The position numbers were made by a program, and so were the translations under genes. Positions 56,868 through 57,422 of a DNA stretch of 64,000 nt are shown here, piece by piece (within the stretch, counting starts at the first letter, position 1; every line of letters begins with the position of its first letter). Under the pieces are notes generated by a model. The model ran no database searches. It was not told the DNA's origin and saw nothing but the letters and a program-made list of their open reading frames with translations. Origin of the DNA: Shigella phage Henu11. The DNA lies in sequence record OM953433. One strand, given 5' to 3'.

Positions 56868-57353
56868 ATGTTTTGTGCTAATAAAGATTGTGGCAACAAA
56901 GCCGTTAAAGGTGGAAAATATTGTTCACGCTCTTGTGCTGCAAAGGTAAACAACAAGAGTCATCCAAAAAGAAGACAAGAAGGCTCTTGTCATTCATGTG
57001 GAAAGCAAACACCAAAATCAAGAAAGTATTGTGATGAATGTATTTCAAATGGTATTCTGAAACAATACAAAAACCCTGACGAAGAAAAGAAAGCAAAGTC
57101 ACAACACGTTAAAAAGTCTCGTGACAAACTTAAGAGGGTTTTAGTTGATTACAAAGGTGGTTGTTGCTCAATTTGTGGATACAATAAGTGCATAAAGGCT
57201 TTAGAGTTTCACCACTTAGACCCTAATACAAAGGACTTTACAGTAGGACAAAAACACTTCTCTATAGAGGTAATGAAGTCTGAAGTTGATAAGTGTGTAT
57301 TGCTGTGTGCAAATTGTCACAGAGAGGTGCACGAAGGAGTAACAATGCTGTGA
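56868..57353 (+). CDS. HNH endonuclease embedded in tRNA cluster
   Basis: 161 aa; Cys-rich N-terminus; CSICGYNKC...EFHHLDPNTKD...CANCHREVHEG HNH core; last codons overlap tRNA-Ile. Confidence 0.7.
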   Translation: MFCANKDCGNKAVKGGKYCSRSCAAKVNNKSHPKRRQEGSCHSCGKQTPKSRKYCDECISNGILKQYKNPDEEKKAKSQHVKKSRDKLKRVLVDYKGGCCSICGYNKCIKALEFHHLDPNTKDFTVGQKHFSIEVMKSEVDKCVLLCANCHREVHEGVTML

Positions 57354-57422
57354 AAGCACATATGGATGTGCATTCGGCTGATAACCGAAAGGCAGAAGGT
57401 TCGAATCCTTCTCACAGTACCA
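57347..57422 (+). tRNA. tRNA-Ile(GAT)
   Basis: acceptor GCTGTGA/TCACAGT; anticodon loop ctGATaa; T-loop TTCGAAT; 5' end overlaps HNH stop codon. Confidence 0.7.

Follow-up and report, generated by a model that had tools for sequence, protein, structure and literature searches.

The locus and its flanking tRNA genes

The window, by which we mean the whole stretch of 64,000 nt of Shigella phage Henu11 (OM953433) that was analysed, contains a bank of 26 tRNA genes on the plus strand, which ARAGORN places from 55464 to 60863. An open reading frame (ORF) for an HNH endonuclease is situated within this bank at 56868..57353 of the same strand, stop included; it starts with ATG and encodes 161 aa. 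Its left neighbour is tRNA-Met(CAT) (56774-56850, plus strand) and its right neighbour is tRNA-Ile(GAT) (57347-57422, plus strand), the latter being of the allele designated type A below. Both tRNAs, called by ARAGORN, lie far above the gathering score of the Rfam tRNA model (29), with 56.9 bits for tRNA-Met and 60.0 bits for tRNA-Ile. All seven pairs of the tRNA-Ile acceptor are standard, including G1.U72. We also note that position 8 of the type A tRNA-Ile (57354) is A, as opposed to the near-universal U8, and that the Rfam score is still 60 bits.

The ORF and tRNA-Ile share the 7 nt G-CTG-TGA (57347..57353, plus strand). The 3' end of the ORF reads ...GTA ACA AT/G CTG TGA/AAGCAC, in which positions 1-7 of tRNA-Ile serve as the third base of the Met160 codon, the Leu161 codon and the TGA stop (57351-57353). 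The overlap falls on the 5' strand of the acceptor stem. The other plus-strand ORFs of the bank (59023-59235, 59280-59507 and 59889-60686) each end at or inside the next tRNA; their ends comprise a 51-nt overlap with tRNA-Arg(ACG), a 2-nt overlap with tRNA-Gln and a stop 1 nt before tRNA-Ser(GCT). Judged from the sequence, the overlap of the HNH ORF with tRNA-Ile is no chance oddity, yet it is ordinary for phage tRNA clusters, since all plus-strand ORFs in the bank, and homologs elsewhere, end likewise. An ORF that ends inside the next tRNA is the usual layout of genes embedded in phage tRNA banks, as in hegC and hegD of T5 and segB of T4.

The encoded protein

The preliminary description had read this arrangement as a 161-aa HNH nuclease gene, located between tRNA-Met(CAT) and tRNA-Ile(GAT), whose last codons and stop lie inside the first 7 nt of tRNA-Ile. 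The position is borne out by ARAGORN and the ORF list, the ending by the sequence, and the HNH assignment by a match of the window protein to PHROG 2255 'HNH endonuclease' (E=2.8e-34). A search of a large protein database at E<=1e-5 yielded 2,495 homologs. The Pfam HNH model PF01844 gives the window protein 14.1 bits against a cut-off of 21.4 (E=0.052); the same model matches 12 of 34 aligned homologs at E<=0.01, and DUF2116, 'probable treble clef', matches 10 of the 34. An NCBIfam search of the window protein returned no meaningful family. A sequence search of solved structures gave no significant match, the best being an unrelated thioredoxin reductase (E=0.056) and the second best the HNH domain of a group II intron maturase (E=0.059).

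Conservation was assessed in the alignment of 34 full-length homologs. Seven residues of the HNH core, namely C100, C103, H115, H116, C147, C150 and H151, are invariant, as are most Cys columns of the N-terminal zinc modules, and at least 90% of the sequences retain C58, N149 and H155; the window protein keeps every conserved Cys, His and Asn of the catalytic and zinc modules. The HNH/His-Me finger motif is present, with the catalytic His, the Asn and the metal-binding His enclosed within CxxC...CxxC. Residues 1-60 form two Cys4 zinc modules (C3/C8/C19/C23 and C41/C44/C55/C58), residues 70-95 a basic helix, and residues 97-157 the HNH domain. The AlphaFold2 (AF2) model, with a pLDDT of 90.8, displays the strand-strand-helix of the beta-beta-alpha-metal fold over residues 112-156. 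Its best matches in the PDB are the HNH domains of Cap5, T4 Endo VII, Gme HNH, ZRANB3 and Cas9, and these matches are weak (best E 0.012, probability 0.99).

Comparison of orthologs gives a dN/dS of 0.05-0.19 with dS reaching 0.6-0.7, which indicates that the protein has been maintained by purifying selection. From these ratios, the intact family-invariant Cys and His residues and a confident model with HNH-fold matches, we judge that the gene is functional.

Distribution and insertion site

The tRNA bank of the window matches those of Felix O1-like phages (Ounavirinae). The best matches are the Mooglevirus phages Sf17 and 3HA14, with ~96% identity over 90% of the query, and the uncovered 10% includes the HNH ORF. 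The window itself derives from a Mooglevirus-like phage, being ~98-100% identical to Shigella phage Sf17 on either side of a divergent block that is discussed in the following section. The HNH gene was found in 11 of ~280 related phage records, at the same site every time, and is missing from ~96% of the relatives. The carriers are Felix O1 (three records, including FO1a), garuso, Sl26, L27, S.Kent 1-2-1, OPT-SAL01, MET-P1-301, KEP3 and Henu12; one IMG/VR contig also holds the gene at this site. The KEP3 protein has 98% amino-acid identity to that of the window. The Henu12 protein is 100% identical, its record starting within the gene. The Henu12 record (OQ834936) is 100% identical to the window over the common region, is without window 59270-59500 and looks truncated.

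Two copies are damaged: that of MET-P1-301 is frame-broken by a 1-nt deletion, and that of OPT-SAL01 matches in two pieces. Such damage is consistent with the decay expected in the life cycle of a homing gene. The KEP3 record bears no annotation, and in MET-P1-301 and Henu12 the gene is left unannotated. The gene is not new, as the RefSeq record of Felix O1 already annotates the ortholog, ORF44 (Felix01p085, NP_944863.2), as an 'HNH endonuclease' overlapping tRNA-Ile. The genome paper of Felix O1 lists six HNH genes (PMC3185647).

Alignment of filled alleles with seven sequenced empty sites reveals an inserted segment of 494 nt (56853..57346, plus strand) that is absent from the empty sites. 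In relatives, tRNA-Met and tRNA-Ile are separated by a 2-nt AT spacer, and this spacer is the insertion point. Empty alleles read CCA-AT-GCTGTGA, and filled alleles read CCA-AT-[T ACGTTGGTGATATT ATG ... ACA AT]-GCTGTGA. The two tRNAs stand 1-2 nt apart in Sf17, Sf16, 3HA14, CHB7, KhF3, DaR-2019b and NBSal004, and the insert is located at the identical point in the window, KEP3, Felix O1, garuso, MET-P1-301 and the IMG/VR contig. The gene is thus freestanding, being present or absent at one precise site in close relatives and lying outside any intron or intein. The boundary is ambiguous by 3-4 nt owing to AAT or CAAT at both edges. A search of the insert edges for repeats found no inverted or direct terminal repeats and no target-site duplication. 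A transposon is ruled out, since the edges are without terminal repeats and offer only the 3-4 nt AAT microhomology.

The GCTGTGA motif is already present in empty type A alleles, and the stop codon therefore comes from the target tRNA, not from the insert. The earlier suggestion that the gene invaded the cluster is well supported by comparison with the tRNA clusters of related phages, in which precise empty sites, a boundary at 56853-57346, a sporadic distribution and joint travel with one tRNA-Ile allele were found. The preliminary description had held that a gene at the identical position in all relatives, with no empty-site alleles, would speak against the idea; empty-site alleles do exist.

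Alleles of tRNA-Ile and the mosaic block

Three deeply divergent alleles of tRNA-Ile(GAT) occur at the locus, termed A (window), B (Sf17) and C (Sf16), in 50, 111 and 121 phage records, respectively. Compared by eye in the alignment, they are ~55-65% identical, and they are shuffled across the genera of otherwise similar Ounavirinae. The tRNA-Ile of the window is identical to the allele of Felix O1 and NBSal004, and ~60% identical to that of its closest relatives. The tRNA-Arg(TCT) at 57699-57775 likewise has at least three alleles. Each of the 11 records with the gene has allele A, and the gene is present in 0 of 232 records with B or C, with the reservation that the phage records are phylogenetically related and their counts are not independent events. 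Among allele A records, 11 of ~46 carry the gene, or 9 of ~41 without duplicate records.

The left flank of the site takes three forms. In form (i), tRNA-Lys directly precedes tRNA-Met, as in Felix O1, garuso and NBSal004; forms (ii) and (iii) possess an 80-nt spacer of KhF3 type and of Moogle/CHB7 type, respectively. The window has form (iii), and its tRNA-Met(CAT) retains Mooglevirus-type bases at 56805 (T) and 56839 (C) in the allele alignment. The backgrounds of allele A were surveyed by a search whose query, made artificially, combined an empty type A site with the spacer background. Type A with the gene occurs on all three left flanks. Among the matches listed, every type A empty site lies in left flank (i), and type A in flanks (ii) or (iii), as found in KEP3, MET-P1-301 and the window, is always accompanied by the gene. 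The HNH proteins fall into two clades, that of KEP3 belonging to the clade of the window and that of MET-P1-301 to the clade of Felix O1. The occurrence of type A plus the gene on foreign left flanks, in two HNH clades, implies that the gene and tRNA-Ile were transferred jointly at least three times.

In comparison with Sf17, the window shows 98-100% identity in most 100-nt bins from 55100 to ~56700 and from ~58400 to 61300. The main divergent block (56852..57817) comprises the insertion, the replaced tRNA-Ile and downstream sequence, and represents a putative co-conversion tract; it contains 753 differing alignment columns, among which the insert and a 107-nt segment that Sf17 has and the window lacks are counted. 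Differences also cluster, to a smaller extent, at 56473-56771 and 57982-58330. The 107-nt extra segment follows tRNA-Arg(TCT) in Sf17, 3HA14 and CHB7, falls between window positions 57770/57771 and is absent from the window. It bears a T-arm-like sequence, GGTTCGACTCC, and may be a tRNA-like remnant.

Downstream of tRNA-Ile, markers of Felix, CHB7 and Moogle type are mixed (right flank, 57470-57600), which implies that the donor is unsampled or that the tract is patchy; a single Felixounavirus donor is ruled out by the same mixture. The flanks of the block, part CHB7-like and part Felix-like, match no single sampled donor, and the history of the event was thus more complex than one clean conversion tract. 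A clean one-sided tract with its left edge at the insert was likewise dropped, as extra difference clusters lie 80-380 nt to the left. The divergent block would be what homing with co-conversion leaves behind. Natural variants, rather than crosses, provide the indications of co-conversion, namely the linkage with allele A, the foreign flanks and the block at 56852-57817. Nuclease genes are known to sit at exchange boundaries between phages (PMC10448857), and the mosaic of the window fits this pattern.

Expression

A sigma-70-like promoter (55407..55436, plus strand; TTGACA-18-TATAGT, 11/12, with a TG extension) lies upstream of the first tRNA of the bank, and a second one (57438..57466, plus strand; TTGACA-17-TATAGT, 11/12), conserved in relatives, lies just after tRNA-Ile. 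No other strong promoter-like sites lie nearby. Both are consensus matches only, promoter-like sites in the region being fewer than in shuffled controls. No promoter-like site was found between 55407..55436 and the start of the HNH ORF, and the site at 55407..55436 is likely the source of the transcript that carries the ORF. Given the second site at 57438..57466, the HNH gene and tRNA-Ile would close the first transcription unit. An 88-nt insertion common to KEP3 and Felix O1, placed at window 57470, directly follows the -10 box of this second site; it is absent from the window and from the other carriers of the gene.

The 3' end of tRNA-Met is separated from the HNH ATG by only 17 nt, within which the sequence shows a Shine-Dalgarno-like GGTGA (56859..56863, plus strand) 4 nt before the ATG. 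The gene brings with it neither a promoter nor a terminator nor a stop codon. The lack of a nearby promoter-like site and the 17-nt gap with GGTGA suggest that the HNH protein is made from the tRNA precursor. RNA structure over the ribosome-binding site was not significant against shuffles (z = -0.13), and on this value the idea of a fold that masks this site, known from some T4 homing genes, was dropped.

The ORF would accordingly be transcribed within the tRNA precursor, its translation starting at GGTGA/ATG and ending at the UGA that forms positions 5-7 of tRNA-Ile. Cleavage by RNase P at the 5' end of tRNA-Ile (57346/57347) would then strip off the last codon and the stop, and full-length nuclease would come from unprocessed precursor only, which would keep nuclease levels low. 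For T4 segB, maturation of tRNA-Arg has been proposed to sever the stop codon from the mRNA, and likewise for the T5 enzymes (PMC2330249).

Homologs at tRNA 5' ends

A census of the family covered 57 loci, comprising 53 IMG/VR loci that encode relatives and four phage records. In 33 of them, a tRNA follows on the same strand, and the homolog stops at an offset of -16 to +10 nt relative to the 5' end of that tRNA. These 33 loci span 22 distinct junctions, with Ile, Asn, Ala, Tyr, Trp, Cys, Met, Arg, Leu, Pro and Thr tRNAs. The commonest stop falls on tRNA positions 8-10 (TAG, once TAA), and TAG occupies these positions in 157 of 366 distinct tRNAs of the homolog loci. The register 2-4/5-7/8-10, which is the one used by the window ORF, meets a stop within 16 nt in 61% of the 366 tRNAs, as compared to 25% and 15% for the other registers.

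A second filled/empty pair is found in T5-like phages. In NBSal005 (1172-1561), a homolog is encoded by an insert of ~389 nt, which ends 5 nt ahead of tRNA-Ala, and positions 8-10 of this tRNA form the stop; T5 (9794-9799) has the empty site at tRNA-Ala, directly after the stable 'RNA2H'. The idea that 'RNA2H' is a remnant of the HNH gene was discarded, as tblastn gave no match and T5 simply has an empty site.

Several further arrangements were observed among the metagenomic loci. Many homologs start 50-66 nt after tRNA-Asn(GTT), several being flanked by two different tRNA-Asn genes; the tRNA-Asn-associated loci are L017, L025, L026, L029, L033-L035, L041, L046, L047, L052 and L053. The downstream 'tRNA-Asn' of L025 and L026 has an insert of ~20 nt in the variable region. 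In L024, L028, L050 and L051, the homolog stop abuts (0-1 nt) the 3' end of an opposite-strand tRNA-Arg(TCT), and in L054 a tRNA-Arg(TCT) of the same kind lies 7 nt upstream of the homolog start.

Tight packing as such is general and not specific to nucleases, given that all plus-strand ORFs in the window bank, and T5, pack likewise. We tentatively consider, at somewhat less than even chance, that the homologs constitute a widespread three-zinc HNH homing family specialised for phage tRNA 5' boundaries. Its genes would be stop-less and held in a fixed register, being closed by U8-A9-G10 (UAG) of the tRNA or, as here, by UGA at positions 5-7. Maturation by RNase P and translation of the nuclease would be mutually exclusive, and the tRNA alleles dragged along would drive the turnover of tRNA cassettes. 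If this were true, any tRNA would be a ready-made gene end.

Interpretation

The locus is probably occupied by a freestanding HNH homing endonuclease gene, a selfish and mobile element situated in the Met/Ile spacer of a Felix O1-like tRNA bank. The comparative sequence evidence for mobility of the gene is strong. Its presence and absence among relatives, the linkage with allele A, the foreign backgrounds and the start of the divergent block at the insert together make up the signature of a homing gene. In a mixed infection, the protein would bind DNA through its two N-terminal zinc modules and then make a nick or cut at or close to the Met/Ile junction of the allele that lacks the gene. In the ensuing repair, the genome that carries the gene would be the template from which the gene, the adjacent type A tRNA-Ile and some of the flank are copied. 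The Mooglevirus backbone with a Felix O1-type tRNA-Ile in the window may be the product of such a repair. It is plausible that the protein targets tRNA-gene DNA, as the preliminary description had proposed.

Some observations count against homing. The gene is rare even among allele A genomes, where an element that efficiently cuts the allele A empty site would be expected to be commoner; the flanks of the block in the window fit no single sampled donor; and the bank is highly mosaic, such that ordinary recombination could move cassettes without a nuclease. The gene might then be passive cargo that moves by frequent recombination of tRNA cassettes, the nuclease having no part in its own spread and its activity being weak or serving another purpose. 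The extent of the mosaicism fits this account, since tRNA-Ile and tRNA-Arg(TCT) have at least three alleles each and many indels are shuffled among the genera, as do the low frequency of the gene and window flanks that are not traceable to one donor. We nevertheless regard it as unlikely: among the matches listed, allele A is never present on a foreign background unless the gene accompanies it, purifying selection acts on the protein, and members of the family at 22 tRNA 5' junctions in unrelated phages indicate site-directed insertion and not hitch-hiking.

Purifying selection over a dS of ~0.6, and the long persistence of the HNH lineage at one site, fit a domesticated accessory nuclease, one kept for a benefit to the phage such as the exclusion of co-infecting relatives, the degradation of host DNA or an action on the tRNA locus. 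HNH enzymes do take part in marker exclusion between related phages, I-HmuI of SPO1/SP82 being an example, and this too counts in favour of domestication. In contrast, a gene absent from ~96% of relatives is dispensable, at least one copy is frameshifted, and a packaging-associated role is at odds with a gene that is neither beside the terminase (starting at 61294) nor conserved. We regard domestication as unlikely as well. That the ORF is a chance spacer ORF or a dead remnant, to which the sub-threshold Pfam HNH score and the missing annotation in KEP3, MET-P1-301 and Henu12 might point, is already refuted by the PHROG match (E=2.8e-34), the 2,495 homologs, the intact invariant catalytic and zinc residues, the dN/dS of 0.05-0.19 and the AF2 model.

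The locus offers a clean natural example of selfish nuclease genes reshuffling phage tRNA repertoires: empty as well as filled sites have been sequenced, tRNA-Ile comes in three alleles, and the gene has moved with its tRNA at least three times. The most interesting lead is that genes throughout the family may be closed by the 5' ends of tRNAs. If that pattern holds, it would explain the polymorphism of tRNA alleles in phage banks and the way in which nuclease expression is coupled to tRNA processing. Practical benefits are more modest: annotation of the gene in MET-P1-301 and Henu12 is called for, and the enzyme could be a source of new site-specific nickases or cutters.

Comparison with known systems

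HNH genes within viral tRNA clusters have been pointed out in a review, which suggests that they spread tRNA genes (PMC6409571). The window protein resembles HNH enzymes of the PF01844 type, including McrA, the En domain of group II intron maturases, Gme HNH, T4 Endo VII and Cap5, in the motif CxxC...HH...N...CxxCH...H and in its predicted beta-beta-alpha-metal fold. It differs from them in the additional N-terminal tandem Cys4 modules (DUF2116-like treble clef) and in the mobile-gene context within a tRNA bank. A terminase-associated HNH protein of the HK97 gp74 type is ruled out by position and by the sporadic distribution; the terminase-like ORF starts at 61294, 4 kb from the HNH gene and with 17 tRNAs between.

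The T5 enzymes F-TflI, II and IV are homing endonucleases located in tRNA clusters (PMC2330249), and T5 HNH enzymes have been reported as site-specific endonucleases (Akulenko 2004, as cited in PMC2330249). Like the window gene, the T5 heg genes encode HNH enzymes between tRNA genes and on the tRNA strand, and in the RefSeq annotation the overlap with the next tRNA amounts to 14 nt for hegC and 23 nt for hegD. The nuclease is at the N-terminus in hegC and hegD, in contrast to its C-terminal location in the window protein. Membership of the F-Tfl/heg group was ruled out by BLASTP against hegA, C, D, E, F and T5.069, in which the best match (E=0.007) covers only 55 residues of the hegA HNH motif. 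True homologs are present in other T5-like phages, NBSal005 and EH3, at tRNA-Ala.

T4 SegB is a freestanding homing endonuclease encoded within the tRNA cluster of the phage; the tRNA genes next to segB are inherited along with it, and the target of the enzyme is a tRNA gene of phage without segB (PMC2330249). The segB ORF ends at the 5' end of tRNA-Arg, the tRNA that follows (PMC2330249), and the window gene likewise ends at that of tRNA-Ile. SegB belongs to the GIY-YIG enzymes, whereas the window protein is an HNH enzyme with no sequence relationship to it and with no GIY-YIG match in Pfam or PHROGs. Activity and homing have been demonstrated for SegB, and the window gene would probably work in a similar way.

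Nuclease genes also occupy other junctions of Felix O1-like banks. Felix O1 has further HNH genes, ORF45 and ORF47 (2663-3055 and 3973-4386), ORF47 ending 1 nt before tRNA-Thr. The HNH gene gp31 of Sf16 (2096-2443) sits just after tRNA-Arg(TCT). None of these HNH genes is present in the window. A second nuclease class is represented in the CHB7 bank by a PD-(D/E)XK endonuclease-like gene (2530-2871) after tRNA-Ser(TGA).

The closest known counterpart is ORF44 of Felix O1, which shares with the window gene the length of 161 aa at 83% amino-acid identity, the insertion point, the 7-nt overlap and an identical tRNA-Ile. The two belong to different HNH sub-clades, at a dS of ~0.6, and ORF44 resides on a Felixounavirus backbone with tRNA-Lys directly before tRNA-Met, in contrast to the Mooglevirus-like backbone of the window.
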